64,000 bases of DNA, taken from assembly GCA_043228905.1 (NCBI GenBank), contig JBHGNT010000014.1, forward strand, positions 310,001 through 374,000. Reading direction: 5' to 3'. Every line of letters begins with the position of its first letter. The stretch's first letter is position 1. The DNA is from Azolla caroliniana. Taxonomy: Eukaryota; Plantae; Polypodiophyta. The position numbers were made by a program, and so were the translations under genes. Below the pieces are notes generated by a model. That model did no database searches. It was not told where the DNA came from and worked only from the letters and a program-made list of their open reading frames with translations. Shown in pieces: positions 717 through 60,386 of the stretch.

Positions 717-1281
717 TGTTAAGAGTTGGAATAACAACACAACCAGTCATGAATAAGAACGCATCAACAAGGACGTAGTACGAAGAGGAAACGGCAAGAG
801 GAAAGGAAAGCAAAGAGACAGTCAAGTGTGAAAAGCCCATACCCTAAACGTGAAAGCTATATAAACCACATAGTAGTGGCTTTGTGGGGGTTCTCCCATT
901 TGTAAAGATCTCCTATTGATTAGAGCTAGAGCTTCCTTTCCTCCTTGTAACCTTTGAGCTTAAGAGAGATTAGTGAAGTGTTGAGTTAGAGAACACTAAT
1001 CTCTCTCCTTGTTGGTGCTAGACCTCTTAGCAAAGAGGGTTAATAATAGACATACTCTTCCTTCTTATTGTCTACATCTATTAATCTATTGTCTATGAGA
1101 GAGAGCTTGAGAGAATGAGAGAGATATTGTGCTTAATCATTTACTAACCGTTGAGTGAGTGTGAGGCTCAGAGGTATTCGACAACCATCTCCGCCCGATT
1201 CGCCATCAAGAGGGTATACGCTGGTCCGAATCCCGCCACGATATCGAGGAGCTTACTCCATCGATACATAGATCCTTAACA
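717..1281 (+). repeat. 5' LTR of element A
   Basis: Direct repeat of 21833-22400, about 18 substitutions and one 3-bp indel by eye (~97% identity). TATA-like CTATATAAA near 857. Confidence 0.95.
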
Positions 1282-1287
1282 TCTATT

Positions 1288-1305
1288 TGGCGCCGCTGCC
1301 GGGGA
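1288..1305 (+). promoter_or_regulatory. Primer binding site, tRNA-Asp type
   Basis: TGGCGCCGCTGCCGGGGA 6 nt after the LTR, one mismatch to the Athila-type PBS TGGCGCCGTTGCCGGGGA. Confidence 0.85.
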
Positions 1306-2179: not shown

Positions 2180-2957
2180 ATGGCCGGATCCTCATGGACA
2201 GAGATGTTCAAAACCCGACCCGCACGCCTGGAGGAGTCCACACAAACCAACCAAACCCACGATGCCGCCCCACCTAACCCGACTCAGTACCATGGAGGGT
2301 GGCTAACTCCGGGGATACTACCAAACATGAACCTCCCATCGAGCCCAGGAACTAAAACACTTCTCAACACACCCCCACTACATGAGAGCCCAATGGCAGA
2401 CCCACTCAGTGTAGAACGACATATACGAGATGCAACGCAAGAGTTACGGGTGATAGAACACGAAATCAATCTATGGACGGTACAACTTTCGAAAGGAGGA
2501 CAACTGGAAAGCACCACTCAAGATATCGAAGCCGCTTTGGCAGAAAGGAAGGATAGATTCGCATGAGTGCAACAAAACTTCACCTCCTAGAAACATCGTC
2601 ACACATGCACCGCCGAAGTCAGGAGCACAACCCCGTACCGTGTTCGAGCACAACGGGCGATAGCTCGAACGAAACCTGCGCACAACAACACTGACAGGAA
2701 CTACACGCTCCCTGTGTAACGCTCGGCCACAACCGAGCTTCGAATCAAACACCGAAAACGGGGAATGAACACATGACACAAAGGAGAGAAGAGTACATAG
2801 GATGTTTAACGTGGAAAACCCTGAGAGGGAAAAACCACGGGAGTCCACAGACTCCAAACTATCACTATATCACAATGATTACAACAGTGAGCTCACAGAG
2901 GCAACGACCTCGTGCTCACGATCTTCGCCACAGGCGGCGGTTACAACAGAGGCAACG

Positions 2958-3008
<51 letters not shown>

Positions 3009-5456
3009 CACTATTACGCGCTCTCTAGTCTTTTACCAACAAGAATGACAACATATCTAAACAAAGTTTGCCCTAAGTCATATTTATACTAATATGACTT
3101 TTCGGCTATTTACAAATATAGCCCCGATGGACTCTCAGAAACATATTTACAAATATGTCCCTTCATCCGGTGAGCACTTCTCACCGGGCCTTCACCATCC
3201 GGCTCTTGCCGGGTACTCCTCATCCGGTTCTCACCGGGTCCTCCGCAGCCGGGTACTCCTCATCCGGCGCTTGCCGGGTACATCACATCCGGTTCTCACT
3301 GGGTCCTCCGTAGTTGGGTACTCTTCATCCGGTTCTCACCGGGTCTTCCGTAACCGGGTACTCTTCATCCGGTTTCGGCCTCGGCTGAGATTCTCATCAA
3401 CACTGTTCTTCTCGCTTCCCATCCGGAGGAACCTGTTTCCTAATAGACACCCGACACCACCACGCATGGGCACAATCCCTACACCTGACCAAGCTACCCC
3501 TACACCTCCAAACGCCGAACTCGCACTAGCGCTACAATCCATCCAAACTCTCGTAGCATTGATGGAAAAAGAGCAAGCACCCACAGACCATCCGAGAAAC
3601 CTCACAAATGATAGTGGGAAGAGTGCTTCCATTTCTAAACTAGTACCCCGTTTCCTCGGTTTCGGCGATGCCTATGACCACGTCGAGAGGTTCAAACAAA
3701 TTTGTCGCGCTTATGAACCCCTCACAGAGATCACCAAGGTAGCCGCGTTTGGACTTACACTTGATGACCAAGCCGGAATCTGGCTTCGAACCTTGAATGA
3801 AGACATCGCCGCCGATTTCGAGTATGTCATCGAGGATTTCTTGATAAACTTCGCTCGTAGAGGGAATAAATGGAACCCGATTGACCAACTTTTCACCCTC
3901 AAGCAAGAAGCGAATGAAACGGTCAGGGACTACATACGTCGCACAAAAAGCCTGCATCATTGTTGTAGCCCGAACGACAAGATGTCGGATGACAAGTTGA
4001 TGAGCCGTTTCATTAATGGGTTGTTCGATCCGACACTCCAAAATTTCCTGATTGCCAGGATGTGTCGATCGTTTGTTGAAGCCTACACAATAGTGATGAC
4101 CTTTGAATATTTGATGAGTGGGTTACAAATACCCACTCACGCACCCACGAACAACCGTGAGAAATCCTTCGACTCCACCCCTGCTCTACCCACACCACCG
4201 CGAACACCCCGTATAGAAAGACCCCAAGCATACGCCCAACGAGAAAATGTAAGGTGCATGGTATGTCACGGACACCACACGGGACATGAGTGTCCCCTCC
4301 TTCATCAACGACGACCGCAATACTGTAAGTGGTGCAAAGCTTTCGTGATGCATACGCAAGAGAACTGTTGGCAAGCCCCCACTGGAAGGTACGACCAAAC
4401 GCCAATGGTGGAACACCCACGCTCACCTCCACCACTTAGCTGCCTACCACTACCAGTGATACTCCCTCAACAACCCCCACTACCGCGCATCGACGCTCGC
4501 CTCGCTGAACTGGAGTATACCACAGATAACCAAACCTAGGTCGGGGCGAGCACCCCCGAATATGAAGACTCGTACCGGGAGTATGGCATTGAAGAAGAGG
4601 TTTTGTCCCATTTCGTGGATTTTGAAGGCGACCAAATACCAGTGTACGTCCTGAGAGGGGAACAACGTGGACCCCCTATGGGATACCGCAACAACAATGG
4701 TCTAAGGAGGTCAGAATTGAAATGCTTCAACTGCCAAGGCCCACATATGGTTAGCGAGTGCCCAACCAAACATGAATACTACAACCGGATGGCCCAATGA
4801 CCACAACACCTCCCACTCGACACGCCCCCGCAACCACTGGTGCAATGGCTCACCCACAGTTGCAAGAACTTATCAAATGGTTCCAAAGAGAAGCATCATG
4901 CCCAGGGTGCAGTAAAGAACACCTAGTACCTGATTGCCCAGAAAAGAAGCAAAGGGTCGGCACAAATCTATTGTCCATTGTACCATCCACGATCGGTGCC
5001 AATGTCATCACGCGAGCCCAACGAGTAGCGCACAATTTAAAATACCAAGATCAAGGTCTCCCCGTGACCGCACGTAAGAGACGCAAATCTAGAAAGAATA
5101 ATTCCACACAGACCTCAAAGCAAGATCAAGAACCGGAGGGAGACACAGAAACATTACCTGTCAATCCGAATCAAGAACTGTCGGCGCACCTAGCGGCATA
5201 CCCAAACCTAGTAGCTGAGAAACAAAAAGTAGAAGAATACATCAAGCTCATACACCATGAACAATTTGAAAAATCACTTAGCCTCCCCAGCTTAAACTTC
5301 AACCAACTAGTAGAATGGGTAAACCCCTCACCTCCCCCCGTCGTCACACCAATCGACACCCCCACTTGCCATCCTACCCTGATCAAAGAGGTCAACACAG
5401 CCCTACTCCAACAAATCTTAAATTTAAGATTGCGACTCACATTACGCAAAGTGTAG
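2180..5456 (+). pseudogene. gag: Gag region of A, broken by stops, a frameshift and an insertion
   Basis: Retrotrans_gag-like segment (PRFLGFGDAYDHVERF...LKQEANETVRDYIRR...FINGL) in ORF 3094-4539. Four CCHC-type knuckles in ORFs 3094-4539, 4603-4800 and 4797-5456. Confidence 0.8.
2715..3402 (-). mobile_element. Probable solo LTR inserted in gag of A
   Basis: TGTAAC...TCAACA ends, CTG duplicated at the junctions, motif GTTTAACGTGGAAAACCC..GGGAAAAACCACGGG resembling reverse-oriented plant Copia LTRs, (CT)n tract and internal CCGG-rich repeats at 3160-3375. Removing it joins gag as GTTRS-LFFSLPIRRNLF. Confidence 0.55.
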
Positions 5457-5525: not shown

Positions 5526-6515
5526 ATGCTCGAAGAACTACTCAAACTCGACATTCAACCGTGGCACGACGTCCTCCGACGCCTCAATGGTGGCCTATCG
5601 GCGGGATATGGTGAAGGGATACACACCCACAGTCCTCGCACGTTCACAGTCCTCAAACAACCCGAAGGACCGCCAATCGACGTCCACGAAGCTCACTTCG
5701 AGAGCAACGACACTAGTTTCACTCTACCAGTCTACGTCAATGGTAAGACGTGTGATGCCATCATTGACACCGGAGCAGGGGTAAGTATCGTCAGTTACGA
5801 ATGTTGGTGTAAGTGGGGGAGCCCAAGAATGTTTCCTTCTGATGTCAAACTACAAATGGCAGATGGGTCCATCCAAAGACCGGAAGGCATGATTCCTGCG
5901 CATCAATTCACTATCCACAGAGTGGAGTTCAATCTCACCTTCCTCATCACAAGATCATCCAACCATGTAGCCTACAAGTGCTTACTAGGAAGACCATTCC
6001 TAAGTATAAGCCTGGTAATGGATTTCGGGAACGATATAATCTATATGCGTAAGGACAACAAAACCTTCCACATCAAAGCATACACACAAAAAGTGCATGA
6101 ACAAGAAGGCAACCCTCTCGTAGACGATTGGTCGGAAACCACTGAGTTTGAGACCAACCTCCTAGCGTGCAACCCCACAAAGATAGTTCAACTCTTGACC
6201 AGAGGCCAACACTTTCCTCAAAGCCTCATCACTTCCAAAGAGGAGGACGCACGTGAGAGAGACGACCAATCCGTCTCTTCTGAGACGTCAGAGATGAATT
6301 GGGTGCACACTCTCGCCACAACCGACGCAATGTACCCTATAGGTACAAAGTGTTGTGAAGAGGACGGAGAAACAATCTCGTGCTTCAACGTCACCACCCT
6401 GGGACCCCGACGAAAAGAAGTAGACGTAAAGGACGAAGAACTGGTACAACGAGTCACACGTCCAGGTGATGTCACGACCACTCAGAAGGTTGTGACAGAA
6501 GCGGACTTCCCATAG
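5526..6515 (+). pseudogene. Aspartic protease (retropepsin) region of A
   Basis: AIIDTGAGVS catalytic motif (D at 5766), MADGS flap and CLLGRPFL motif. Confidence 0.9.
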
Positions 6516-6613
6516 CATTTCAAACTCTATGAACAAGGGAGTAGGGCAGTGGCTTGTAAGAGACCAAACGCAACCCCCAAGGCCTAGGAGAAGTCTATGA
6601 TGAACTAGCAAGG

Positions 6614-9607
6614 GTGAAAGAAATCAACCTCGGGAAAGGGACAGACTCCAAACTGGTGTTCATAGCCGCAGATCTCCAGCCCGACGAGGAGGCATCCTTG
6701 ATCACCCTCCTCACGGAATTTAGGGACGTGTTTGCATGGTTGTACATCAACATGAAGAGAGTCCCAACTGAGGTTGTCACCCATAGTATCCCCATGCGAG
6801 CCGATGCCTGCCCAATTCGGCAAAGGCCACATCCAATGAACCCTAACTACGCCGAACAGGTGAAAGCCAAAATCAACAAAATGTTGGTTGCAGGCATTAT
6901 CTACCCAATCAAACGAACTACTTGGGTCTCCCCGATTGTAGTCGTCCCAAAGAAAAACGGCCGGATCCGCATATGTGTAGACTACCGCCAAGTTAACGAA
7001 GCCACTATCAAGGACAATTACCCGGTACCCTACATCGAACATCTACTCGAAAGAACCGCGGGGGCAGAAGCGTATAGCTTCATCGACGGGTTCTCCGGGT
7101 ACCACCAAATCTCGGCGGTCCCTGAGGATCAACACAAGACAGCTTTCGCCACGGAATTTGGTACGTTCGCATATAAACAGATGTCTTTCGGACTCACGAG
7201 TGCCTTGAGCACCTACCAAAGAGCGGCAGACCATATCTTTGCCACAAGGTTACGACAAGGGGTGGAGTCTTATGTTGACAACTTATGTTGCAATTCGAAA
7301 TGGCATGACCACTTGGGGTTACTCCGTTTGACGTTCGAAAAATGCAGGACTTATCAACCCTCTCTCAACCCGCTCAAGTGTCAGTTCTGGGTCAAGCACG
7401 GAATAATATTAGGACACATCGTGTCCCGCCACGGGATCTCGACCGATGAGGCAAAAGTAAAACTCATCCTCGACATGCCACCCCCCACGAACGAGAAACA
7501 ACTACAAGGGTTCATGGGATACGCAGGTTACTATAGACGCTTCATTAAGATGTTCACGAACAAGGCTAGACCACTCTACTCCCTATTAACGCAGTTCGTG
7601 TGGACAGAAGAGTGCACACACTCCTTCAAGCTCTTGAAAGAGTGCCTAAGTAAGGCCCCCATCCTCCGGCCTCCCGAGTGGACCAAAGAATTCCACATTC
7701 ACACCGACGCTTCCGCCTTCGCGATTGGTGCAGTGCTAGATCAACTCGGTAAAGGGGCACTCGACCTACCGGTCACCTTCGGTAGTCGCCAACTAAATGC
7801 CGCGGAACGAAATTACTCCACAACGGAACGGGAGGCTTTGGCCATGGTTTACAGCGTAAAGAAATTCTGCCACTACTTGTTGGCGTTCCGGTTCTCGTTT
7901 TTTGTAGATCATCAGGCCCTACTCTACTTAGTAAACAAAACTCACGCCACCGGACGCATTTCACGATGGATCGTAACGTTACTCGAGTTCGACTTCAAGG
8001 TAATAGTGAGAAAAGGGAAAGACCACATACTCGCCGATCATTTCTCCCGGATTCCCAACGGAGAAGAAGCCACTGGGGTCGACGATGAAACACCAGATGC
8101 AACATTATTTGCAATCGACACCGTACCAACATGGGCATCATACATACTTCGCGTCCTAACTGAAGGAGCGTCCTTCCTAAAACAACTACCACGGACACAC
8201 GCGTGTGCCTTGCTAAAGAAATGTGGCCCCTTCACGATGCTCCGAGGCAATTTGTATCATCGAGGTAATGACGATCTACTTCGGAGGTGTATAACAGACC
8301 ATGACGTCGTCACCACCCTCAAACAAGCTCATTGCGGGAGCGGAAGTGGTCATTTCAATCACGAGACCACTGCGCACAAGATCCTCCAGTCCGGCCTATG
8401 GTGGCCAACACTCTTCAAAGACGCATACGCGTACGTACGTCGCTGTGACGAGTGCCAACGTTTCAAACACCCGCTAAAAGAGGATTTTAATACGTTAAAC
8501 TCGGTGGTGGCATGGCAAGCATTTGAGAAATGGGGCATCGACTTTATCAGCCCAATCAGCCCAACTTCCAACCTCAACCGATACATAATAACCACCACCG
8601 ACTATGCCACCAAGTGGGTCGAAGCTAAAGCTTGCGTTAACACTGACGTGCGTAGTACTGCCAAATTCCTATATGAAAATGTCATCGTACGGTTTGGATG
8701 TCCGCTCAAAATCATTAGCGACCAAGGCTCGCATTTCCTGAACGAGGTGATAGCACATTTACTAGGCGAGTTTATGGTGACACACCGCAAAAGTTCTCCT
8801 TATTACCCTCGATGCAATGGACAAGTGGAAAGCACGAATAAGGTGCTATGTGCAGTGCTCACAAAGATAATCGCCGCCTCACGATTTGATTGGAGCACCA
8901 AACTCCAAGCAGCATTATGGGCTTTCCGTACTTCCTACAAAGTCGCAACTCGCCACACAGCATTCAAACTAGTGTACGGGCAAGAAGCAGTATTACCCAT
9001 CGAGTTCCTTGTCCCCAGCCTCAGGATCACCGTACAAGAACGATGGAACGGGGACCCCCTCCTGTCACGCCTAGAGAACCTAGAACGACTGACAAAAACT
9101 CGCCTTCTCGCATTCCAGGCACTCTTGGTAGAGAAAGCCAATAGAAAGGTGTGGCACGACAATAAAGTCAAGAACAAAGACCCCGCTGAAGGCGACATGG
9201 CCCTCAGATTCTCCTCTCAACGACACAAGAAGAAGCTGAAGTTACGGGGTGAAGGCTCGTATGTGGTTTCGGAGATTACCAAGACAGGAGCATGTCACCT
9301 ACGCACGATCGAAGGTTTTGACATCCCCGGGTTCATTAATGGGAGCAAGCTCAAACATTACTATGGACCCCTCACACTCGAGACTCTACTCACGGCTCGG
9401 CAACGAGAGGTAGAGGCCAAACTTGAAGCCTCCGAAGGCCGAATGGCCCAGCTCGAAACCGACCTGCGCAATACGCAAGCGAAATTGAAGCGACAGGGAC
9501 ACGCCCATCCGACAACCATGGCTCAGGCGACCAACTCTAATGATGGAACAATACAACTACGATGTTGCGTCGACGACATGCCTTTGACGGAGGTCATTGA
9601 CACATGA
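6614..9607 (+). pseudogene. pol: Pol of A: RT, RNase H and integrase
   Basis: RICVDYR, YSFIDGFSGYHQI, YVDN (catalytic D changed to N), TDAS..IGAVL, HHCC zinc finger, WGIDF, ISDQGSHF and NGQVE motifs. Confidence 0.95.
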
Positions 9608-9890
9608 GCATCACTAACCCTTTTCTCCTTCGAAACATGGAGACGTCTAGGTTGCCTAGACCTCGAAGTGTGCAACGACAACTTCCATAGCTTCGATGGG
9701 TCCACGTCATGCTGCCTGGGAACTTTCGGGTGTAGCATCAAGACAGAATACAACGCACACTCAATCCAAGTTCAGGTACTCCCACCCGGAGTGATGTACA
9801 CACAATGCCTCCTCGGTTTAGATTGGTGTTGCATAAGCGAATGTCTCCTATCACCCAGCAAACACATCGTCTCTTTCCAAAAAGGAGATG
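9550..9890 (+). pseudogene. Second retropepsin-like domain in frame after integrase
   Basis: IQLRCCVDDMPLTEVIDT*ASLTLFSFETWRRLG...FHSFDGST...CLLGLDW. The TGA at 9605-9607 occupies the Gly of DTG, and the frame continues into ORF 9668-10789. Confidence 0.75.
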
Positions 9891-10030
9891 GACTGAAGTC
9901 CGAGGACCTCGTCGCAACAACACTCAAATCACATCCCGCTATCCTCGTTGATCCCCAAAGCGTGGAGTTACCCAAACAAGCAACACACCAACACCCATGG
10001 GCCGCCCATGGCCAACGCGACACTAACAAT

Positions 10031-10521
10031 AGAACACAGACACCCAAACCACGAGAATGGGTGAACGTCCACACAGTTTTCGCTAAAGGCCCACGCTACG
10101 GAGAACGTGCGGTGTGGCGAGTCAGAAAAATACTCACAACCGCACAAGGTTGGCACAATGGCACCACTAGCTTCTGGGTTCCGAAACGAAACCAACTCCC
10201 CGCTCGCAATCGAAACACCCCTGCATGGGACATCGATGAACCCCAAGGTGCGGAGTCGCTCCACCAAACCGAACTCCAACACCCACTGGCCACCCAAGAC
10301 CAGCGCGACGTTAACGTCAGAACACAGACACCCAAACCACGAGAATGGGTGAATGTTCACGTTGTTTTTGAGGACGGACAACGTTGTGGAGAATATGCCA
10401 TTTGGCGAGTCAAAAAGACACTCACAACCGCACAAGGCTGGCACAAAGGCGCCACTAGCTTCTGGGTCCCGAAACGAAGCCGGCTCCCCAGTCACGATCA
10501 TACCACGCCTGCATGGGACAC
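10031..10521 (+). repeat. In-frame duplicated coding module (period 288 bp) at the pol C-terminus
   Basis: RTQTPKPREWVNVH...WRV.K.LTTAQGWH.G.TSFWVPKR...TPAWD twice, starting at 10031 and 10319. Confidence 0.9.
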
Positions 10522-10889
10522 CCGAAAATCACACACATCAGTCCGGTATCCTGCCCAGGCTAAAGCCACAGGAATCGACAAGCCTAAACAACTGAGAGAC
10601 CGAACACCCCGTAGGAAAGTTTCACAAATCCTCCCCATCCCCTTTACAAACATGCCGCAAGTTTGGATCCTTAAAAGTCACGGACCTGAAACCTCACACG
10701 ATACCCGAGTGACACTCCCGCCACGGCCGCACCCTCAACGTTTCTCAAAAGCTCTTAATCTATCCAATCCCCTACCACGTTCCCCATAGACCCTCATTCA
10801 GACCCCCGTCATCATCGATATCTGAATCTTTTCCATCGATTCCTCCTTACCCTTCTGACCTCGCATCCCTGTCGATTGTCCCTCGTTGT

Positions 10890-11230
10890 CGTGGTTTATG
10901 TTTTATTAATTGTATTATTTTTTATTTTTTATTTTTTCTATTTCTTTTATCAATTCATTTATTTTTTATTTTTTTATTTTTTTATTTTTTTATTTTTTTA
11001 TTTTTTAATTTTTTTTTCATGATCTATATCATTATTTTATTGATTTAATTTATTTTTAATGACTATTATTTTCATTTTTATTTGTATTTATTGGTTTTTT
11101 TTATTTTTTATTTTTATGTTTTTTATTTTTTTATTTTCTATACTGATTTTTTTTTTTTTTGAGTGGTTTTATTTCGTTTTCCTTCCTTTTTTTTTCTTTC
11201 TTTTTTTCTTTCTTTTCTCCTTCTTCTTTG
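10890..11230 (+). repeat. T-rich low-complexity spacer between pol and the accessory region
   Basis: Long runs of TTTTA/TTTTC. Confidence 0.85.
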
Positions 11231-11919: not shown

Positions 11920-12192
11920 GTAACTCTTAGTTGTTGCGTTCCTACATAGTTAGGACCCCATGTCCCGCTCTCTGAAAAAGAAAAAAAGAAAAAAAAAGGG
12001 GGAATCTATTGAAACTACCCGAACTTGTTGATTCGTCACCACATTTAACTGAGTTACTACATATTTAGGATTCCACGTCCCGCTTTCAAAAAAAAAAAAA
12101 AGAAAAAGAAAAGAAAAAGGGGGAACCTATGGAAACTACCGAACTTGTTGATTCGTCACCACATTTAACTATACTAATATTTTTCCTCGCAG
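11920..12192 (+). other. Putative intron inside the accessory region of A
   Basis: Donor AC|GTAACT, branch-like ACTAAT near 12173, pyrimidine tract TTTTTCCTCGCAG|. The junction keeps frame between ORF 11672-11914 and ORF 12194-12409. Confidence 0.55.
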
Positions 12193-14945
12193 GTTGCAAA
12201 CGATGACGTCTCCCCAATTCATCAAACTCCTCCACGCATACTACCCCAATGCAGGGTGCGGTTCCTTAGTCATCCCAGCGGTGTTCAACAATACCCGATG
12301 TACTTACCGGGTTCCCACGGCCGCCATGGAGCTCAAGTACCTCGAACCCGACGTGTTCACCACCCTCTCACGACTTGGCCTCAAGTTCTTCCTTGGGATC
12401 GGGTCGTAGGGCGTCCTACCCGAACTGGTCAACCGTTTCCTCATCGGATACAACCCTGATACGGGCCATGCCCCGTCACATTCCAGTTCTCCGCGGCCGA
12501 TGTTTGTGCTATGTTGCATTTACCCCTCAAAGGGGCCCCCTTCCGTACCACGAGGACCCCTGGGGTTGTCCCTGGCATCATTCTCGCCGCCTACGCCGAA
12601 TATTTTGGACGCGAAGGTTGGTGTTACACTGAAATCCCTCGAGTCCATCTCCACGACCGTTGTAGCGCAATTGCCCAAATCGACGACACCACATCTACCG
12701 ATGCCACCGCTCGTATCACCAGCGAGTACCTCAAGTGGGCACATGATCCGCAACCGGTCCAGTGGGCTCACGAGCTTGTCCGCCGGGTCCGAGAATGGCA
12801 CACACGGCCCAAATCGACTATCAATTTCGCGTGGTTCCTTACCCGCTACTTGTGCGCAAAGTTCAACATCGGACCCCTTGCCCCTCCCTTCGTACGCTGC
12901 CAAGAACGCTTCCACAAGATCACTGTCCCAGGCCAACTCGAGCGCATTCGCCTCCACGAACACGACTTTTTACAATAGGTACACCAAGGCGAACATGCAC
13001 GGCCACCGGTGCACAAACAAACCCCGATCACCCACATGTCAACCAAAGCTAACCTCGACACCCAAGGATATCACGAATCGTGTCAAGGAATTCCAGACAC
13101 ACGAGTTCACCGCCACCGAAATCCAGGCCTTGTCCACTACCTTCCACTATGTGTCACATCAGAACACAACCACGACTCCGCGTTCCCACAGCTGCACCAC
13201 TGAGTCAATCTTGCGCGACCAACGGAACCCGCCAACCCCGCCTCCCCCCACCTCGCCAACCCCTCTACCCCACGAATCCTCTCCCCCTGCCCTGGCCACA
13301 ACTACCCCGCCTTTCCCGTCCACCACCGAAGACGACACCCTGCAACCCCGACCCGATAAACTCGCCTGCCACACCGCTCCCGACACCGAAACCCCCGACC
13401 GGCCCTCAACCGCAACCCCGGCAATTCCCCTCCAACCCACCATCTCCACCCCCACTCCCGACCTCTATGCCTTGCTCGACCTCACTCACTGTAGTTACTA
13501 CTCACCCTACCCCCTCCCTCGTCGTCCCCCTTAAACCCTTAACCGAAATGGTGGCCGACCTCCTCAAGATGACCGTCGTCGTGAACCGTCGCCTAGTTCA
13601 AGTTCATGCACAGGCCTAACAAATCGCCACCGACCAACACGAGACCTCTATACGGAACGAGATCTTGGTCGTCGAGGTACGGAGCGCCCTCCATACCAAC
13701 GCATGCCAAGCGGCCGCCCATGACCTCCTCAAGCAAGAACTCATGACAACGCAAACCCGACACCAGCAACTCGCTGACGAATTCCAACAAGCTCAAACAA
13801 CCTGGCACCACGACCAAGAACGTGCAATGCAAACACACGCCAAACTTTCGGTTGAGTACGTCCACCTCACCACCCAACACCAACTCATCGAGGCTTGCCT
13901 CGCAACCTTGACGGCTGATCTCTCCGAACGATCCGAGGCCCTGGCCACCACCATGGCCACCACTCACCAACTCACGAGCGAGATCACCACCCTCAAGGCT
14001 GAACGAGACGCCATGGTCCACCAAGTCGAAGTCGCCAATGAACGCAACCGATGTCTCCTCATCAAACACCGCCGCCAATGCGCCGACCTCGAAAAGGACA
14101 TCCACCAACTCCGCACATCCAAAGCTGCCCTTGAACACGCCCTCATCCCCAGCGTGACAGACCCCTCCACCGTTCAGACCCCCCCCTCCTTCCCCCAACT
14201 GGCTCTCCGAATATGATCCAAGCACTCTCAGTGTACGTGACCTCGACCTCCCTGCTCTCCGAACTTTTCACTGCACCACGCACACCACGCACCCTCCTCA
14301 TCCAAGCAACGTGCGTCCTTCGGTCGTTAGCCACCACACGTCGCATATTCTTTGACGACACCACACCCCCAGACCGGCAAACCTTCATCCGAGTACTCCC
14401 CGAAGACAACCACGCCCTTGCCCTCTGCATGTTGTACCAGGAAGCCACCGAAGAACCTGCTCCCCCAGCCGACGACCTCTTCCCCCAACACCTCCCCATT
14501 TTGTTCCTCGAAGGTATGGCCTACCTTCACACCACCCTCACCCCCAACTTAGACATCTCCAACCTAATCTATTTCACCTACCCTTCTGATGTCACGATGC
14601 AAGTCATCAAAGACCACCTGGCCCACCTCTTCGCAACACTGGTGCGCTTACACCACATCGCCGACACCCTCACCCACACCCTATTGGAAAACACAACGAC
14701 CTCCGTACCCCCTTTCGGTTTCCTCTGGCTAATATGCGCTTGGCAAACCGCATGGGACGTCAGGGTTCGTACTCACATATTCAGCATCGAATATGTCACG
14801 TTCAACTGGCCCACCGAACTCGAGGCTGACGACATACCGAACTTCACCCTATACCTCGACGTTTCCCGTGAGTATCAACTCATGATGTTTGATGAGGCTC
14901 ATGCTCTGCCCTCCTACCCCCGCACCCCCCTTCTCCCCCCCCAGA
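12193..14945 (+). pseudogene. Accessory (env-like/ORF2-position) coding region of A, part 1
   Basis: Frameshifted chain of ORFs: globular domain (GLKFFLG...LVNRFLIGY...VQWAHEL...INFAWFLTRYLC), Pro/Thr-rich linker, coiled coil 13548-14216, then ORF 14213 cut by the Copia insertion. Confidence 0.65.
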
Positions 14946-15031
14946 TGTTGGAGACAAGGGCCGTCAATGCGGAAGATCAAGAAGCATTCTTTTCCTGTTT
15001 GATACCTGCGTATGACAGTTTCTGAGATAGT

Positions 15032-15070
<39 letters not shown>

Positions 15071-18000
15071 CACAAAAGACTTTCTATTCCATAGAAACAA
15101 TAATACAACCAACCTTACAAAAAGGTTACAAGGTCACTATATATAGTGACCGACTAAGGGCAACTCCCATTTATGCTAATTACACAAATGGCCCAAACTT
15201 GAGCTATACAAAGGGATAGTGTGGATACATCCATTATACACTTGTATTCGACACTCCCCCGTAATGGGCGTATACATGGGTTATCTAAGATTACAGGTAT
15301 AAACCTAGGTTCTCAGACATATCAGTTTTGTTCGAGTCGGCAGGGTCCGAAGGCAGAAGACCGGACTGGTCGGGTCAGAAGAGTTGAAGCCGATCATTAA
15401 GGAACTGATGTCGGTTGTCCGAAACCATCCTGCGCTGTGTCCGGCTCTAACCGGACTGGTTTGTCGTTACGCCCATCTGATGCCGAAGGGACCGAAAGCG
15501 GTCTGCCGAAAGACACTTGGTCATTCCATCTGCGACATTGTCGGTTGTGGATATTTTCTCTAGACCGATTTTCCCTGAAATGACGCAGTCCCGAACGAAG
15601 TGATATCGAACGTCGATATGTTTGGAGGCGTTGTGGTGAACCGGATTTCTCGACAAGGCAACAACACCTTGACTGTCGCTATAGACAACTGGAGCCGAGT
15701 CATGGTCGACTTGCCGAAACGTGTGCGCCAGCCGGCCGAGCCACAAAGCTTCTTTTGCAGCATCGGACGCAGCTACATATTCTGCTTCGGTCGTTGAGGT
15801 CGTTGTGCACTCCTGAAGTTTCGACTTCCACGAAATTGCTCCATTGCCGAATTTGAAGCAGTATCCGGTTGTTGATTTCCGACTGTCTATACAGCCGGCG
15901 AAGTCCGAGTCGGTGTAACCGACTACGCCTGAGGTTGAGTTCGGACCGAAAAGAATGTCGTGATCTTTTGTGCCAGCCAGATATTTGAACACATGCTTGA
16001 CTGCGTTCCAATGCGATCGGCCAGGATTGTGCATAAATCTGCTAACGACTCCTACGGCATGAGAAATATCAGGCCGTGTCGCGACCATCAGGTACATAAG
16101 GGAGCCGACTGCCGGTGCATACGGTACCGACTTCATATCTTCCCCCTCCGGATCGGATGTCGGGCAGTCTCGCTGAGAGAGCCGAAGATTCATGGGGAGC
16201 GGGGTTGAAGCAGATTTGGCTGATTGCATGTTGAAGCGTTCCAAGACACGTCCAATATAGTCGGTCTGAGACAAAAAAAGATGTCGTTTATCGCGATGCC
16301 AACTAATCTTCATGCCAAGGATGTGTCGTGCCGGACCGAGGTCCTTCATGGCAAACTTCAACCGCAGTTGCCGAATGAGATCGGCAAGTTCGCCCGCGTG
16401 GCGTCCAGAAATTAGCATGTCGTCCACGTAAATGATGAGGAAGATGGGTGATCCATCTTGAGCTGTGTTGGTAAAAAGACAATGGTCCTCATCGCTTTTT
16501 GAGAAGCCGATCGATTGGATGAAGTCGTCGAACTTCTTGTACCATTGTCACGGTGCCTGTTTGAGGCCGTATAGACTCTTCCTGAGTCGGCAGACTAGAT
16601 GTTCTTGGCCAGTTGCCACGAAGCCTTTTGGCTGCTCCATATAAATTTCCTCGTCAAGATCACCATGGAGGAAGGCTGTTTTGACATCTAGCTGAATCAG
16701 CTCCAAGTTGTCGGCTGCCACTACGCCGAGTAGAAAACGAAGGGTTGTCATTTTCACCACTGGTGAAAAAATCTCGTCGAAGTCGACGCCATATTCTTGT
16801 CGGAAGCCCTTCGCAACTAATCTGGCCTTGTACTTTGGGGTGGTCGAATCAGACGTCTCTTTTAGTCGATAAACCCACTTGCAAGGAAGAGCACGTCGAT
16901 TCTTAGGTAGTTCGACCAAATCCCAAGTCTTGTTTGCCCGAATGGAGTGCATTTCCGACTCCATCGCCAGATGCCAGGTGGCTGAATCGACAGATGTCGA
17001 TGCTTCTTCGTAAGACGTCGGTTCGCCGGCGTCGGTGAAGAAAATTCCAGGAGAATACCTCTCCGGAGGTTGTGACAGTCTCTCGGATCGTCGAGGTATG
17101 ATTGGACTGGTCGCATCGGGTATCGAGGTCGGATGGTCCGAAAGCGAATCATTCGGCTGTGCCGAGTCAGAGTTGTCCGAGTCGGTAGTGTAAGGTTCAG
17201 CTACCCGTGAAGCTGACCGTGTGTTAAGAGCGGGGCCTTCTTGAAGGGTCGGCACATCGGAAAATGTTACCCTTCGGACTTCGATCGGTTTTTCGACTGA
17301 TGGATTCATAGCCGACTCGTTGAACACAACGTCCGAACTTCGAACGATTTGTCTGCGTTCGGGGTCCCAGAGTCGGTATCCCATTTCGCCGTCTGATCCA
17401 TATCCAAGGAAAATGCATTTCCTGGACCGAGGTGCAAGTTTTCGGCGATCATCTTTCGGAATAAGGTCGTACGCCTCGCATCCGAAGATCCTCAGCTTGT
17501 CGTAATTCGGCTTACTACCGATCCATAGTTCTTGAGGAATTTGAAGTCCTAGAGGTCTACTTGGCGACATATTGATTATGTGTACTGCCGTGAGTAGAGC
17601 CTCTGCCCAGAAGCCATCCGACAGTCCGGAGTGTTGGAGCATGGAAACTATCCGTTCTTGGATTGTCCGATTCATTCGTTCTGCAATCCCGTTTTGCTCC
17701 GGACTGTGTGGTGCCGTAAATTCACGTCGGATGCCGCGTTGTCGGCATAATTTGACGAATTCTTCGGATTTGAACTCTCCCCCATTGTCGGTCCGAAAGC
17801 ATTTCAGTTTTCGGTCAGTTTGATTTTCTACCGTAGCGAGCCAATCAGAGAAGATCGAGAAGACACGATCTTTGGTGCGAATTGGATAAGCCCACACCTT
17901 TCGAGTCGAATCGTCAATAAAACTGACGAAGTAAGAGGCACCGCCGAGAGACTGATGCGGCATTGGGCCACAGACGTCCGAGTGGACTAAATCGAGAGGT

Positions 18001-20261
18001 CTCGTTTCTCTTGGTGCTGATGTCGGGTGTGATGCGGCTGCTTGTTTGCCATACTGGCAATGTTCGCAGAATTGATGGTCGGAGAAGGAGAGTTTAGGGA
18101 TGTATCCGGCTCTAGATAGGTGCGTAATGCCGGCCTTGCTGAGGTGTCCTAATCTTCTGTGCCATAGTGATGACACAGGAATATCCACCAAAAACAGGTT
18201 ACCCTCCCTGAGCGTAACATGTAACGGATACAGTGAGTGTATCTTGGGTCCTCTAGCAAGCAGGAGGTTCCCCCTGTGGAGTGTCCACCCTCCCGAAGAG
18301 AAACCGGCACGAATGTCGTCTTCATCTAGTTGTCCGACTGAGATCAATGGCCTTGAGAGCTCGGGTACATGTCGGACATTGTGAAGTACAAGTGTAGAGC
18401 CACCTGCAAGGTTGAGCTCTACTGTGCCGATTCCAATGATGTCACAGTGTTGTGAGTTGCCGACTCGAACTGAGTCGGAGTGACGGATCGTATATTGCCG
18501 AAATTGGGATCGATGAGGAGTCACGTGAAATGACGCGCCCGAATCTAAGAGCCATGTGCTCGATTCTTCAGTCGTGAGCAGAACTTCTGATCCGACTGGA
18601 TTTTCGATTGATAGTATATTCGGGTCATTTGGTAGCACATCAGCTGAGAAGCTGACGTAATTGATCTCCTCATGCCGGCCACTCTTCTTGTCTGATTTCT
18701 GAGACTTGTCGTTCTTGTTCTTGAGTGCGCGGCAGTCGGCTTTGATGTGTCCGGGTTTCTTGCAATAGTTGCAGATTCGATTATCCCGTGACTGGCTCCG
18801 TCTTCGCTGATTGTTCGGCTGCCGTGAGGAATCTCTTCCTCGTATGTTCGATCGGTCTGTCGAACCTTGTACTACGTAAGCGTCGTCTGTTGAGTCTTTG
18901 GCGAAAGACTTTCTCCGAGCTGCTTCGGTCAGGATTGCACTCGTGACTTCGGAGTATTTAACAGCCGTGGTTGACGCGTTGCACACGGTTGTGACGAAAG
19001 TTTCCCATGATGAGGGAAGGCTGCTCATGAGTATCATTGCTCTGAGTTCATCCTCGATTGCCGTCCCTTGAGATGAGATTTGGGAGCTTATGCTTTCGTA
19101 CTCATTTAGATGTGCTTGAACCGAATCGGATTCTTTCATCCGCAAGTTGTAGAGGCGCCGAATAAGAAACATCTTCGTTGCAGCGACCTTCTTTTCGTAG
19201 GTGTCCGACAGTGTTTTCCACAGTTCGAATGCTGTCGTACACGATTGCACCGTAAAGTATACCGATTCCGATAGGTGCATCCGAATCGTGGCGCGGACGA
19301 TTCTGTCCAGCTTCTGCCACTCAATTGGTTTGTATCCTTCTGGAGGTTCTTCATTTTCGATGGGATCGATTTGCCCCTTGACTATGAGATAGTCCTGCAT
19401 TTGCTCCTTCCAGAAGTTGAAGTTCGATCCATCGAACTTTCGTAGACTCATTTCTGACGAGCCGGATGTTGATGCCATCAAATTTGGTTTCGGTTGACGA
19501 AGCTCGGTTCGGAGTTGACTACGAACCTTGTTGGAGTGCAGCCGGTTGGCTCACCCGATATCGTTCTAGTCGGATTTGAACCCGAGTCGGTTCGGCTTCG
19601 GATATATGTATTGTTGAACTTGCTCGAATTGACTCCGGTAACTTGAGGGACAGAACCGACCGGTCTTCCCGAATGTTGCCGAGTCGGAGTGAGCCCGGTT
19701 CGCTTCCGAATATATATGCCAAATACCGATTATTGAAACCGATTGTCTGGACCGATTCAGCTTCGGGTGACTGCAGCGATGAGAGAGACGGATCCAACTG
19801 ATCCTCCCGAATGTCGATCAGCCGGATGAAGCACGAATTGGGGTTGTTGTCTTGAGACCGATCTGCACCGAGTGGTTACAATGAGCGACGAGCAGCGTTT
19901 GATGACCTCTTCGGATGCCGTTTAACCGAGTGAAGCACGATCGTGTCAATGTTGCACAAGGGGATTTCACCTCGAGCGGTTACGATCACAAGGAACAGAG
20001 TACAACCTGCTAGCTTACTCCAAGCGAAGGTGATCTAACGTGATGAGATGCAAGCCTCGTTTTTCTTCTTCTTCTCTCTTCTTCGAATGACGCAGGAAAC
20101 CGAATGATGTGCAGGCTGAGACGACGGCCGACAGCGGATTGAAGGACCGAATACTGTGCAGGCTCTGATACCAGATGTTGGAGACAGGGGCCGTCAATGC
20201 GGAAGATCAAGAAGCATTCTTTTCCTGTTTGATACCTGCGTATGACAGTTTCTGAGATAGT

Positions 20262-20300
<39 letters not shown>

Positions 20301-20483
20301 CACAAAAGACTTTCTATTCCATAGAAACAATAATACAACCAACCTTACAAAAAGGTTACAAGGTCACTATATATAGTGACTGACTTAGGGCAACTCCCAT
20401 TTATGCTAATTACACAAATGGCCCAAACTTGAGCTATACAAAGGGATAGTGTGGATACGTCCATTATACACTTGTATTAGACA
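14946..20483 (-). mobile_element. Nested Ty1/Copia element, Tork/Tnt1-like
   Basis: 308-bp LTRs 14946-15253 and 20176-20483 (about 5 mismatches), TSD CCAGA at 14941-14945 and 20484-20488, tRNA-iMet PBS (GCTCTGATACCA at 20162-20173), PPT at 15254-15262. Confidence 0.96.
15447..19481 (-). pseudogene. gag-pol: Copia gag-pol polyprotein with one in-frame stop
   Basis: ORFs 16548-19481 and 15447-16427 are in one frame, separated by TGA in QAP*QWYKKF. Motifs CNYCKKPGHIKADC, WLLDSGAS, TDNGGEF, YVDDML, ADGMTK. Confidence 0.95.
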
Positions 20484-20488
20484 CCAGA

Positions 20489-21754
20489 GATCGACCTGGA
20501 GTGGGATCACGACTCACCTGATGAACCCGACACCCAGCCGCCTCCTCGCCCTCGCCCTCCCTCCTCCCCGCCTCCAAGCCATCGCCCTCCCTCCTCGCCA
20601 TCCTCCGCAAAGCTCTCCCTTTCAACCACCCCCTCGCCTACCTCATGCTCCACCACCAACTACCCCTCCCCATCTTCACTACACCTCCCTTACTCCACAC
20701 CCCGAGCGCCCGATTCAACGTTGCGGCCTTCTACGTTGATTTGGTCGACCGCTACCAACTTACCCACAGCCTCCAAACCGCCCTTGATTGCATCGAAAGT
20801 GGTACCATTTGGGACACTCATCTTGACAATCAGTCTGCCGCCCCCATTCCCTGGGAGTTTGACTTTTGCGAGACCCCCCTACTCCTCACCCGCCTCAACA
20901 ACTATTACCCTGAAGTCGCCTCTGAACCCCAAGTCGACATCTTCCTTTACCCCCATGTTTACCGCGATAAGATGTCTACTTGGGCAGCCGCAAACCCCAC
21001 CCCCACTCGAGGGTGGCACCACCCCGTCGTCGACCCCCTCCTCGAACCTCTCGGCGCCCAACCCCCGTGGCGTCTCCCTTGGTTCGCACACACATCCTTC
21101 CGCGAATGGCTCGCCCTCCACCCCCCCGAGCTGCGCACCAGCCCCAACTTTTTTCCCCTTCCTCGGCATTGGCCATGGCCCGATTTTCGCGCCGCCCAGG
21201 CACACCTACCCACTCTTCAATTCAATTGGTCGTTGTTCCCCCGAACCCCGCACACATCCCCGACCGAACCCGACATAATCTGGGTCATGTGACGATTCCT
21301 ATGTACATACCTCGATGTCCCGGACCCTGACATTCAAGCCAGCCTTCATTTTCTATAACTTCTACTCATTCTCCTTGACTCTGGTCCATACGAAGCCCCC
21401 CCCTTCCAACGGCACAACCACCCCGCGTGGGGCCTCGCCTTCGATTTGAACAAAGGTCCAACTCGCCGCCAACTAGTCGGCCTTTGGACCCGCGTCAACA
21501 TACTCCCCGCAATTTACAAACGGGATTTTGAAACCATGATCGACACGCGTTTTTTCCCCGCTTACATAATCTTTAGTCGAAACCCCCCTTCTCCCTTCGC
21601 CGGCCACAACACCTGCACCTGGCTCATCAGCCCCAAGAAAGATTTCTTCACAACAACTGACCAACTGTAGGAAATCCGGCTACCACCATTGAACATCCGC
21701 CGTCTTCACCATCATCTCCGCCGCCACCCGCCCCCCGACGAACCCCCCTACTAA
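20489..21754 (+). pseudogene. Accessory coding region of A, part 2 (continues after the Copia)
   Basis: Pro-rich linker then W/P/F-rich ORFs 20645-21292 and 21446-21670 with stops and frameshifts, same C-rich composition as part 1. Confidence 0.55.
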
Positions 21755-21820
21755 ATTCTACTCACCCCCCGACGCCCGAAGCTCCCCTCCCACAGTGCAC
21801 CCGGGAGTGTGCACTCATTA

Positions 21821-21832
21821 GGTTGGGGGGGA
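21821..21832 (+). promoter_or_regulatory. Polypurine tract of A
   Basis: GGTTGGGGGGGA directly before the 3' LTR. Confidence 0.85.
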
Positions 21833-22400
21833 TGTTAAGCGTTGGAATAACAACACAACCAGTCATGAATAAGAACGCATCAACAAGGACATAGTATGAA
21901 GAGGAAACGGCAAGAGGAAATGAAAGCAAAGAGAAGGTCAAGTGTGAAAGGCCCATACCCTAAACGTGAAAGCTATATAAACCACATAGTAATGGCTTTG
22001 TGGGGGTTCTCCCATTTGTAAAGATCTCCTATTGGTTAGAGCTAGAGCTTCCTTTCCTCCTTCTTGTAACCTTTGAGCTTAAGAGAGATTAGTGAAGTGT
22101 TGAGTTAGAGAACACTAATCTCTCTCCTTGTTGGTGCTAGACCTCTTAGCAAAGAGGGTTAATAATAGACATACTCTTCCTTCTTATTGTCTACATCTAT
22201 TAATCTATTGTCTATGAGAGAGAGCTTGAGAGAGTGAGAGAGATATCGTGCTTAATCATTTACTAACTGTTGAGTGAGTGTGAGGCTCGGAGGTATCCGA
22301 CAACCATCTCTGCCCGATTCGCCATCAAGAGGGTATACGTCGGTCCGAATCCCACCACGATATCGAGGAGCTTACTCCATCGATACATAGATCCTTAACA
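21833..22400 (+). repeat. 3' LTR of element A
   Basis: Direct repeat of 717-1281, followed by TSD TCAAG. Confidence 0.95.
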
Positions 22401-40816: not shown

Positions 40817-43800
40817 TATTAGAAATATTGAGAATCGAGTAGATAGGTATATAGAGTTACAACTGCAGAGATGGATATATGAAAACAGAATTTCTATTAC
40901 ATATGAGAGTAGTTCAAAATGGTAGTTTTCCCATGCGCTCACACCTTAGAGCTTAGATAGGATATGGGCCGGCTCACTACAAAATTAGTGGGGACAAATG
41001 ATCAATCTGACCACTGTGTGAGAAAAGTGACTTATAATCTATGTTTGGTCTTAGTATAAATGTGCAAGTCAGTTGACAGTAGTGGAGATATTCCTTTTCT
41101 GTCAACTGACTTGTCATTTAATATGACCCAACTCCCTAGGTACAGGCTAGTGCTAGATAATACTTATCTTGAAGTCAATGACGCATACTTCAAGACTAAG
41201 TACATCGTAACTTGCCCACAAAATATTCTAGCTGACTTGATTAGCCAATCCTTTTATCTATTTCTCTCTTTCCTAAATATATTGTGTCCTACGCATCTAC
41301 GGTTTCCTAGATTAACACCTTATCGACCCATATGGTCGAGTTGCACACTAGCCGCTCCTCATTTGGGGCGCTATCACAAAATGTGCACTCTAAGAGCACA
41401 TATGGGGATAGATTTACAACTTGGGGCTGATCATTGATTATATCTAACACGCCCCCTCAATGATCAACCCATTGAGTTCACTTGGAATTGGGCCAACACC
41501 TAGTCGTCGAAGGTGTTGTTGCAACTGTTCTGCTCCAAGCGCCTTTGTGAAGATATCTGCAGCATTTTCTGATGTTGGACAGTACTCAAGCTCCACAATC
41601 TCATCATTTATTAGCTCCCGCACATAGTGATACTGAATCTCTATGTGTTTAGTACGTGCATGAAATACGGGGTTCTTGGCAATGGCCATGCAACTCTGAT
41701 TGTCACACCTCAATACCGTTGCCGTCCTTATTGGGACTGCCACATCCATAAGGATTCTTCTTAGCCAAACTACCTCGCATGCCGCTATGCATGCTGCTTT
41801 GTATTCTGCCTCCGTTGAAGATAGTGCCACTGTTGGTTGTTTTTTACTACTCCATGAAACAACTCCAGATCCTATTGAAAAACAATATCCAGAAACTGAT
41901 TTTCTGGAATCACTATCTCCAGCCCAATCGGAGTCGCAATATCCACTAAGTTGGTCAATTGTTGGCTTGTAGAAGATTCCATAATTTAAAGTACCCACAA
42001 TGTACTTTAATACACGTAGAGCAGCTTTCCAATGAGTCTCCTTCGGCTTGTTGCTGAATCGACTCACCACATTGACTGCAAAACAAATATCCGGCCTAGT
42101 GTTGCATAGGAAAATTAGACTTCCTACTAGTTGTCTATACTTCCTTATGTCAACCATTGGTGATGAGTCTTCTTGGGATAGCTTGCAGTTTGACTCCATT
42201 GGAGTCGACTTCGACTTGCTGTCCATCATCCCGAAGGTCTTCAAGATCTCTGTTGCATACTTTCTTTGTGACATGAAGATGCCGACCGAGGTTTGCCAAA
42301 CCTCAATTCCAAGGAAGTAGTGTAGAATCCCCAAGTCTGTCATTTCAAACTCAGTTTTCAAACACTCTTGTGTTTGGCCAATGCACTCTTCATGGTCACC
42401 AGTAAGTACTAGATCATCCACGTAAATGATAATGATGACTTGTTTCCCGTCCGTCATTTTGACATACATACTTGCATCCGAAGCACATTGCTTAAAGTCG
42501 ATTGATCGTAAGAAGCTGTCTATCCTCTTGTTCCAAGCTCTTGGTGCTTGCTTTAGACCATATAGTGCCTTCTTCAGCTTGCAAACTTTGTTTTCTGAAT
42601 TCGGTATCTCAAACCCCGGTGGTTGTGTCACATATACCTCCTCCTTGAGATGCCCATTCAGAAATGCTGATTTGACATCCATTTGATAAATCGGCCATCC
42701 TCTTGAAGCAGCCAACGCTATGACCATTCGAATTGTTGTCATGCGAGCTGTCGGGGCAAATGTTTCTTGTACATCGAACCCTTCAATTTGGGAGTATCCT
42801 TGCGCTACTAGCCTGGCCTTGAATTTCTCCAAAGAGCCATCAGCTTTATACTTTACTTTCCATACCCACTTCGTGCCTATCACCTTCTTCTTTGTTGGCC
42901 TCTCTACCAACTCCCATGTGTCATTTTTCATGATGCTATCATATTCTGATATCATCGCCTCTTTCCACTTCGGGTCGGCCATAGCTTCCTCCACCGAGGT
43001 CGGCTCACTCACTGAGCCTATGATGTCCACCATCAGAGCCATGTTGACAATGTGGTCAGAGGTTCTTCCTTGCTCCTGTATTCTTCTTGATCTTCGTAAT
43101 CCATCAGTTGAAGTTTCAGGAAACTCAACTTTAGGAGTATGATCATTGAAGAGTTGTTGAGCCCACTTAGGTATTTTCTTTACATGTGGGACTGGCATAG
43201 GCTGAACTAGTGAACCATTACCATCAGATGGTTCAACTTCCTTTTTTGGATAATGGGTCGGGATTGGGTAAAATACTTCTTCAGTTGATGAGATAACTTG
43301 AGAATCGTTGTTCTCAGCTAGCTGTGGTTGTTCCTCATCGAACACCACATCGCGGCTTGTCAATATCTTTCTTGCCTCTGGATCGTAGAGTCGATAGGCC
43401 TTTGACTCTTCACTATATCCGAGAAAGATACACTTTTTGCTTTTAGCATCCAACTTCTTTCTGCTCACATCTGGAATATGTGCGTAGCACATACACCCAA
43501 AGGTTCTGAAGTGCAGCACTGAAGGTTTCTTGCCTGAATAAGCTTCTTGGGGTGTTTTCCCTTGAAGTGCCTTCGTGTAGCTCCGATTGAGGATGTAAAC
43601 TGCTGTGTTCACTGCTTCAGCCCAGAATGGGTCGGGCAGCGCTTGTGCCTTCAACATACACCTAGCCATCTCGACAACTGTTCGATTTCGACGTTCGACA
43701 ACGCCATTTTGTTGTGGGGTGTAGGCAGTTGTAAGTTGGCGCTTAATTCCATGCTCTTTGCAATACTCACAGAATTCTATTGATAAGAATTCTCCACCTC

Positions 43801-45543: not shown

Positions 45544-45603
<60 letters not shown>

Positions 45604-60300: not shown

Positions 60301-60386
60301 GCATGAAAGATTCTTGTTAATCAAGTTGGAAACTTCTTGTACGAGCATTCATGTCACCAAAGACAATAACTTCCCCTTTGGATTTG

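Follow-up and report, generated by a model that had tools for sequence, protein, structure and literature searches.

A second retropepsin domain lies behind the integrase of a Ty3/gypsy retrotransposon of Azolla caroliniana. The element was examined in a stretch of 64,000 nucleotides (nt) of contig JBHGNT010000014.1 (assembly GCA_043228905.1, positions 310,001 to 374,000, forward strand), here called the window, in which a single element occupies positions 717-22400. It encodes the usual protease ahead of the reverse transcriptase (RT), designated PR1, and a second protease, designated PR2, in the frame that continues past the integrase. This two-protease architecture is real and conserved, is apparently new to the literature, and defines a clade of Ty3/gypsy elements outside the chromoviruses. 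The window element is a decayed copy of that clade.

The pol frame of the window copy (6560-9604) encodes RT, RNase H (RH), integrase (INT) and then a charged helix. The post-integrase frame runs through the helix to VIDT, meets a stop at 9605-9607, and continues beyond it without a change of frame, as ASLTLFSFETWRRLG..SFDGS..CLLGLDW, as far as 10789. A preliminary description of this DNA had proposed a second protease in this frame, after integrase and a coiled coil; frame reading, Pfam matches and fold prediction all confirmed it. The spacing from the catalytic Asp to LLG was recomputed and was identical to that given earlier: 70 codons in PR2 (Asp codon 9599) and 72 codons in PR1 (Asp codon 5766). 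With the stop read as X, segment 9530-9931 matched Pfam gag-asp_proteas over profile positions 3-89 of 92 (E 1.9e-4, 22.4 bits; curated cut-off 28.2) and also matched Asp_protease_2 (E 0.036). Among relatives, P0019 (28.3), P0140 (28.3) and P0102 (26.1 vs cut-off 24.3) passed, and several others fell short or gave no match. PR2 aligned with the element's own PR1 at 24% identity over 107 residues (E 2e-5). When the 495-residue post-integrase frame was shuffled 20000 times, the pair of protease motifs arose in none of the shuffles; the pattern had been chosen after inspection of the sequence.

Structure prediction pointed to the same family. An AlphaFold2 model of PR2 built from a 43-row alignment had a mean predicted local distance difference test score (pLDDT) of 85.9 and a predicted template modelling score of 0.77. 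The top Foldseek match was the human DDI1 protease domain (E 9e-8), followed by a Rickettsia retropepsin and the FIV, XMRV, EIAV and HIV proteases. VIA-align also placed Ddi1 first (Z 15.2, root-mean-square deviation 2.3, 116 aligned) and the EIAV protease second (Z 12.6). The models contain a predicted retropepsin fold with flap and C-terminal dimer strands, and profile search and structure prediction of the read-through segment agreed in finding a retropepsin. The domain is present within 9550-9890, where it had first been placed, but strands of the model reach ~9919, slightly beyond that extent. A DSGA-type motif was seen in 29 of 44 PR2 sequences. The motifs of clan AA retropepsins (A2-like), for which the consulted part of PMC2642776 gives the DTG/ILG template, are present in relatives and interrupted by the stop in the window copy. 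Atlas feature matches for PR2 scored 0.87-0.88 and were treated as leads only.

The stop at 9605-9607 is a lesion of the window copy and lies inside the catalytic motif. The letter at 9605 differed from that of the window in 97%, 89%, 91% and 100% of summed depth in DNA runs X1, X5, X6 and X4, and in 86% of depth in run X10, a leaf metagenome in which one contig spans 9380-9643 gap-free. The preliminary description had noted that TGA stands here in place of the Gly codon of DTG, one base away from GGA. Contigs of four public DNA runs covered 9000-10900 in all 30 bins. Depth does not represent copy number, but distinct contigs on this region numbered 1283, 1054, 1061 and 173 in the four runs.

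Relatives carry the same arrangement in open frames. P0004 (1981 amino acids [aa], 61% identity), the single match among 78 longer-protein candidates, contains two protease stretches. Among the 15 listed of the 22 members of its cluster, P0009 and P0010 (2553 aa) and P0012 (2454 aa) have unbroken frames from gag to tail with both proteases; the PR2 motif is also intact in P0007, P0011 and P0017, which are fragments. P0030 has an open frame of 3234 aa with both proteases, and the metagenome locus L002 is open for 2383 residues, from upstream of PR1 to the end of the tail. The domain order in open-frame relatives is gag-PR1-RT-RH-INT-helix-PR2-tail. PR2 is not an insertion specific to the window copy: it occurs in P0004, P0009, P0010, P0012, P0030 and L002, as well as in wider relatives.

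The breadth of the clade was seen only with an integrase-anchored profile. A single-sequence search of 50%-cluster representatives gave just 11 matches, two of them close, because PR2 is too diverged. A search with the integrase-to-PR2 region of P0009 returned 35 long proteins, and the whole region was covered only by P0004, P0030 (44%) and P0031 (1434 aa, 41%), each with a protease 190-200 residues past the integrase core. Twelve of the next relatives (P0032-34, 36-38, 41, 43, 46-49) end 132-146 residues past the core; P0039, P0040, P0042, P0044 and P0045 have longer tails that gave no protease match. Identity between P0009 and P0030/P0031 was 58% in RT and 19-24% in PR2. A profile of integrase end plus PR2 gave 125 matches: among the 120 listed, 99 reach the integrase end, 39 continue for at least 85 residues, and 36 of these 39 carry PR2. 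The long-tail matches lacking a PR2 call were P0110, P0135 and P0200.

Position and motif were conserved across this set. The analysis also covered ten metagenome loci. The catalytic Asp lies 70-83 residues past the integrase end in 40 sequences. Of 45 alignment rows, 44 covered the catalytic column; 43 of them have Asp there, and 36 have D[ST]G. The downstream xxG motif was present in 28 of 30 relatives, and the 28 full PR2 domains had a median pairwise identity of 26%. Six carriers formed one side of a branch in both the INT tree (31 rows; 98/94) and the RT-RH tree (30 rows; Shimodaira-Hasegawa-like approximate likelihood ratio test, 98). In these trees the two-protease clade adjoins Riccia proteins and other relatives, the closest ones without PR2. 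The lineage that the preliminary description had postulated is real and far deeper than one family.

The host of the clade is likely to be ferns, because the named close matches are from Adiantum and matches from Pinus, Camellia, Vitis and Malus stop at the integrase end (among the same 120 matches). The former comprise three Adiantum nelumboides gene models only. One of them, P0110, includes the integrase end, the helix and the first PR2 strands, and at the catalytic motif the gene model then goes out of frame. Viral contigs were scanned as well and yielded no relative.

Some other unusual arrangements were encountered. In one sub-branch of the two-protease clade (P0030, P0031 and L002, ~4500-5000) the integrase H2C2 region occurs twice in tandem (two Pfam stretches); the window family has a single one. 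P0022 and P0027 are short proteins of unrelated elements with two tandem retropepsin domains, another two-protease arrangement. Three proteins were not counted as cases of this architecture, being probable joined gene models or assembly repeats: P0021, which has gag-PR-RT three times over, and P0053 and P0035, in which a protease follows an integrase or lies between integrases. P0209, an 81-residue piece on a 246-nt contig labelled Streptococcus pseudopneumoniae, matches the integrase end of P0067 at 89% identity and is likely plant DNA contamination.

Phylogeny of both protease domains separated PR1 from PR2. In a tree of 55 rows and 120 columns, PR1 of the clade grouped with sister, Athila-like and Tat-like proteases (88/91), and PR2 fell outside this group as two sets, one of 18 rows and one of the window family's 4 rows. 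The Tanacetum rows are those that we take, from their motifs, to be Athila-like and Tat-like. In the approximately unbiased (AU) test, PR2 as one clade was not rejected (p 0.295). A joint clade of PR1 and PR2 was rejected (p 0.019), which indicates that PR2 is no recent copy of PR1. PR2 was likely captured from another element or derived from a very old duplication, and the two sets may reflect two separate captures. PR1 itself carries D[ST]GAG in the two-protease clade versus DGG[SA] in 12 sister rows.

PR2 also differed from PR1 in rate. For the pair L004 and L006 the ratio of nonsynonymous to synonymous change (dN/dS) was 0.275 in PR2 (95% bootstrap 0.15-0.48, 120 codons), 0.156 in the integrase end and 0.229 in the helix; the value for PR2 shows purifying selection on it in this one pair. 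P0009 and P0012 were 97.7% identical in PR1 and 84.9% in PR2; for the window copy and P0009 the values were 86.6% and 59.2%. PR2 changes three to six times faster than PR1.

The remaining parts of the post-integrase module were also shared among relatives. A model of P0067 (52 rows) showed the SH3-like integrase end as a beta-barrel (residues 47-100), an unbroken helix (107-150, pLDDT ~90), a disordered linker, PR2 with pLDDT >90 and a disordered tail. Across 42 sequences conservation of the helix is strong, and an acidic spacer directly follows the hydrophobic columns behind it, at which the window family is the least typical. We infer that this hydrophobic motif is a cleavage site releasing PR2, because PR1, in the clade and its sisters alike, has a similar short motif ahead of it at about the same distance, as recognised by eye. 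All 12 tails examined are basic (11-16% K+R) with W-x-[PRV]-K motifs, and 0 such motifs lie ahead of the PR2 end. Between P0009 and P0012, identity is 98% in the central W-block of the tail and 71-76% in its flanks. The window copy has this part of the tail in duplicate, as a 288-nt repeat (9945-10232 / 10233-10520, 78%). A search with the tail gave no family match. The block variant W..K..L.AQG/N....W.PK was seen only after PR2 and is locally helical in the model.

Judged from sequence and models, PR2 is probably an active enzyme, released by cleavage, whose substrates differ from those of PR1, a reading we favour with some reserve. PR1, which matches RT and integrase in conservation, would keep the particle-maturation role. 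Each Gag-Pol molecule would carry one PR2 into the particle, and cleavage at the hydrophobic motif that follows the helix would free PR2 together with its basic WxPK tail. The freed domain would dimerise like other retropepsins, and the tail may steer it to nucleic acid or to a partner protein. Its fast evolution may track a fast-changing substrate, which could be a host protein or a product of the element itself, its tail or its accessory protein. As to the 3' accessory protein, whose processing by PR2 had been suggested, support was lacking: the 3' open reading frames (ORFs) of the window gave no match in the ten metagenome loci or stored proteins, which is a weak test. More tentatively, PR2 could be a captured accessory protease directed against the host: delivered in the particle, freed from integrase and steered by its tail to RNA or chromatin, it would cleave a silencing or restriction protein. 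This narrower version is possible but doubtful. If true, the retrotransposon would encode a protease for counter-defence, equivalent to the accessory proteases of RNA viruses.

Several points weigh against the favoured reading of PR2. In the protease tree, PR2 of the window family stood apart from the other 18 PR2 rows, among outgroup rows partly chosen by their likeness to it. The trees used 120-376 columns and have long branches, and the RT-RH tree is a quick version. The profile that found 36 carriers among 39 long-tail matches included PR2 and favours carriers. The dN/dS of 0.275 comes from one pair, in which L006 is frameshifted inside PR2 and hence decayed; when L002 or L007 was one of the pair, synonymous sites were saturated. 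Intact D[ST]G is missing in 8 of 44 rows (seven substitutions and the window stop), many being fragments of decayed copies. The conserved Asp motif also serves dimer structure, and the proposed cleavage site rests on a four-residue pattern.

Four other explanations of PR2 were considered. Retropepsins need two Asp-bearing halves, and PR2 could be the partner half of PR1, in a cis pair or heterodimer with one pepsin-like active site, so that processing needs no meeting of two Gag-Pol molecules. Both domains retain D[ST]G and are encoded in one open frame, and the PR1 motif of the clade differs from that of its sisters. However, the faster change of PR2 is unlike that of halves of one interface, ~1280 residues of folded domains lie between the two, and PR1 groups with ordinary homodimeric sister proteases; we regard this pairing as unlikely. 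It is similarly improbable that PR2 is a non-catalytic or weakly catalytic dimerisation or binding module on integrase, helping multimerisation or targeting much as a chromodomain does. PR2 occupies the place of the chromovirus targeting domain (as described in the consulted part of PMC6317226), the helix is highly conserved, the tail is basic, and PR2 mostly scores under Pfam cut-offs. Yet the catalytic Asp and D[ST]G were retained at a median identity of 26%, which argues against a purely non-catalytic dimerisation module, and the stretch between helix and PR2 holds a cleavage-like hydrophobic motif and a linker predicted to be disordered.

A share in ordinary maturation, as back-up of PR1 or for a subset of Gag-Pol sites such as trimming helix and tail off integrase, seems very unlikely. 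PR2 has the fold and motifs of PR1, the clade's only new junctions flank PR2, and its relaxed rate would agree with partial redundancy. However, rapid decay is expected of a redundant copy, and PR2 has been kept across relatives with 58% RT identity and 26% PR2 identity; self-removal alone brings no benefit, and the W-block of the tail is conserved too. That PR2 is a neutral passenger left by a nested element or duplication is largely refuted: the window copy is broken at several places including PR2, and chimeric gene models can place a protease behind integrase (P0053, P0035), but spacing is fixed in 40 sequences, frames are open for up to 3234 aa, dN/dS is 0.275, carriers form one clade, and no gag or RT remnants lie beside PR2.

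The host element has the features of Ty3/gypsy (Metaviridae) elements: long terminal repeats (LTRs), a target-site duplication, a primer-binding site (PBS), a polypurine tract (PPT) and the order PR-RT-RH-INT. Its gag-pol is broken at several places and aligned with an open-frame relative in five tblastn pieces. The TGG motif of the primer site presumably resembles the Athila-type tRNA-Asp site. Its spacing from the LTR, 6 nt (window 1282-1305), exceeds the 0-5 nt used in the search described in the consulted part of PMC6317226. Pfam scans of window pol and relatives gave no match to a chromodomain, and the chromodomain-bearing rows P0059, P0061 and P0062 branch far outside the two-protease clade in the INT and RT-RH trees. 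An additional archaeal-type RNase H (aRH), the mark of Tat elements, had no match in window pol, P0004, P0030 or P0031; this result bears on Tat elements with aRH, as distinct from the aRH-less 'Tat Z' groups named in the consulted part of PMC13468544. P0054 and P0057, rows that bear PF13456 or a Tat-like protease, are placed away from the two-protease elements in the trees.

Features of the two-protease element and of the insertion nested in it (window positions).
Feature	Position	Strand	Remarks
Target-site duplication TCAAG, 5 bp	712-716, again after 3' LTR		flanks element
5' LTR (TG..CA)	717..1281	+	96.0% identical to 3' LTR over 576 nt
Primer-binding-site-like TGG motif	1288..1305	+	6 nt past LTR end; from sequence
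gag region	2180..5456	+	frameshifts, stops and one insertion break gag of the window copy; tblastn pieces vs open-frame P0009
Retrotrans_gag	~3754-4023	+	within gag region
Zinc knuckle	~4720-4765	+	within gag region
PR1, normal protease preceding RT	5727..6005	+	Asp codon 5766; Pfam gag-asp_proteas E 9.1e-9
Reverse transcriptase and RNase H	6944..7990	+	
Integrase	8315..9382	+	H2C2, core, SH3-like C-terminal domain
Conserved charged helix, ~44 residues	9374..9496	+	integrase-PR2 link; P0067 model; conserved columns in 42 sequences
Hydrophobic motif and flexible linker	9497..9547	+	predicted protease cleavage site; columns 93% and 90% hydrophobic in 41-42 sequences
PR2, second retropepsin domain	9548..9919	+	Asp codon 9599-9601; stop 9605-9607; LLG 9809-9817
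Basic, mostly disordered tail	9920..10789	+	W-x-[PK]-K motifs and W..K..L.AQG....W.PK block
3' extra ORFs	12152..14941	+	12152-13534, 13620-14216 (coiled coil), 14135-14941; no family found
Nested Ty1/copia insertion	14941..20484	-	LTRs 14941-15254 and 20171-20484, 98.4%; separate from the two-protease element
3' extra ORF piece beyond copia insertion	20525..21292	+	frame class as 14135-14941; no family found
Polypurine tract	21817..21832	+	from sequence
3' LTR	21833..22400	+	then TCAAG

Downstream of the tail, one sense-strand 3' extra ORF is split by the nested copia insertion. The 3' extra ORFs (12152-14941, 20525-21292) gave no Pfam, atlas or locus match. An env-like role of 14135-14941 was considered and is unsupported, with no Pfam family and no transmembrane-like stretch found in it. 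The 5' leader contains tandem arrays of 42-nt and 18-nt units (1392-1692 and 1805-2182), and an insertion of ~770 nt inside gag (2680-3440) carries (CT)n and 40/65-nt repeats and is absent from P0009. Elsewhere in the window, a second copia element at 40817-45973 has LTR copies with 100% identity across 300 nt, and a LINE-like RT frame of 954 codons lies on the minus strand at 57452-60316.

In Ty3/gypsy elements and retroviruses alike, the presence of one protease, ahead of RT, is regarded as a fixed rule, and the PR2 clade departs from it. No report of a protease behind integrase was found in the literature searched, which consisted mostly of open papers; REXdb supplements or newer releases could hold such elements. 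In the consulted text of the plant Ty3/gypsy survey of Neumann et al. 2019 (PMC6317226), extra polyprotein domains are aRH, CHD and CHDCR only, and the word 'fern' is absent from the main text. Plant classification uses this kind of short list, to which PR2 would add a diagnostic domain of a deep, high-copy clade. The lineage is probably missed by annotation tools, because PR2 mostly scores under Pfam cut-offs.

As described in the same part of PMC6317226, Athila, Tat, Phygy and Selgy share with the window element LTRs, a 5-bp target-site duplication, a TGG primer site, a PPT, the order gag-PR-RT-RH-INT, a single gag-pol frame, 3' extra ORFs and large size. In contrast to these lineages, the window clade adds an in-frame helix, a second protease and a WxPK tail past integrase. 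The consulted text of a 2026 Tat study that includes ferns (PMC13468544) classes structures by aRH position only, with no second protease in its structure list. The 'post-integrase' aRH of Tat described there is likewise a second copy of an enzyme type already owned, of separate origin, behind integrase and clade-defining; the extra enzyme of Tat is an RNase H, whereas that of the window clade is a protease. Tat elements and retroviruses have repeatedly captured a second RNase H, and the gain of PR2 is a parallel to this.

The best structural match of PR2 was the retroviral-protease-like domain of Ddi1/DDI2 (PDB 7d66, 3s8i, 4rgh), with which it shares a DSGA-type motif. Unlike Ddi1, PR2 has no ubiquitin-like or helical Ddi1 domains, and identity is 14-18%; this likeness of fold shows neither descent nor function. 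The nearest functional parallel, as far as the consulted part of PMC9794742 describes it, is Wendovirus, an endogenous member of the Caulimoviridae in which two ORFs ahead of RT encode aspartic proteinases that differ from each other. It is likewise a reverse-transcribing plant element with two different retropepsins and no recent duplication. However, Wendovirus is a pararetrovirus without integrase in which the proteases lie close together, whereas those of the window clade flank RT-RH-INT in one frame. PR2 offers a small, soluble and testable enzyme for asking why a retroelement keeps two proteases, and the same question stands for Wendovirus.

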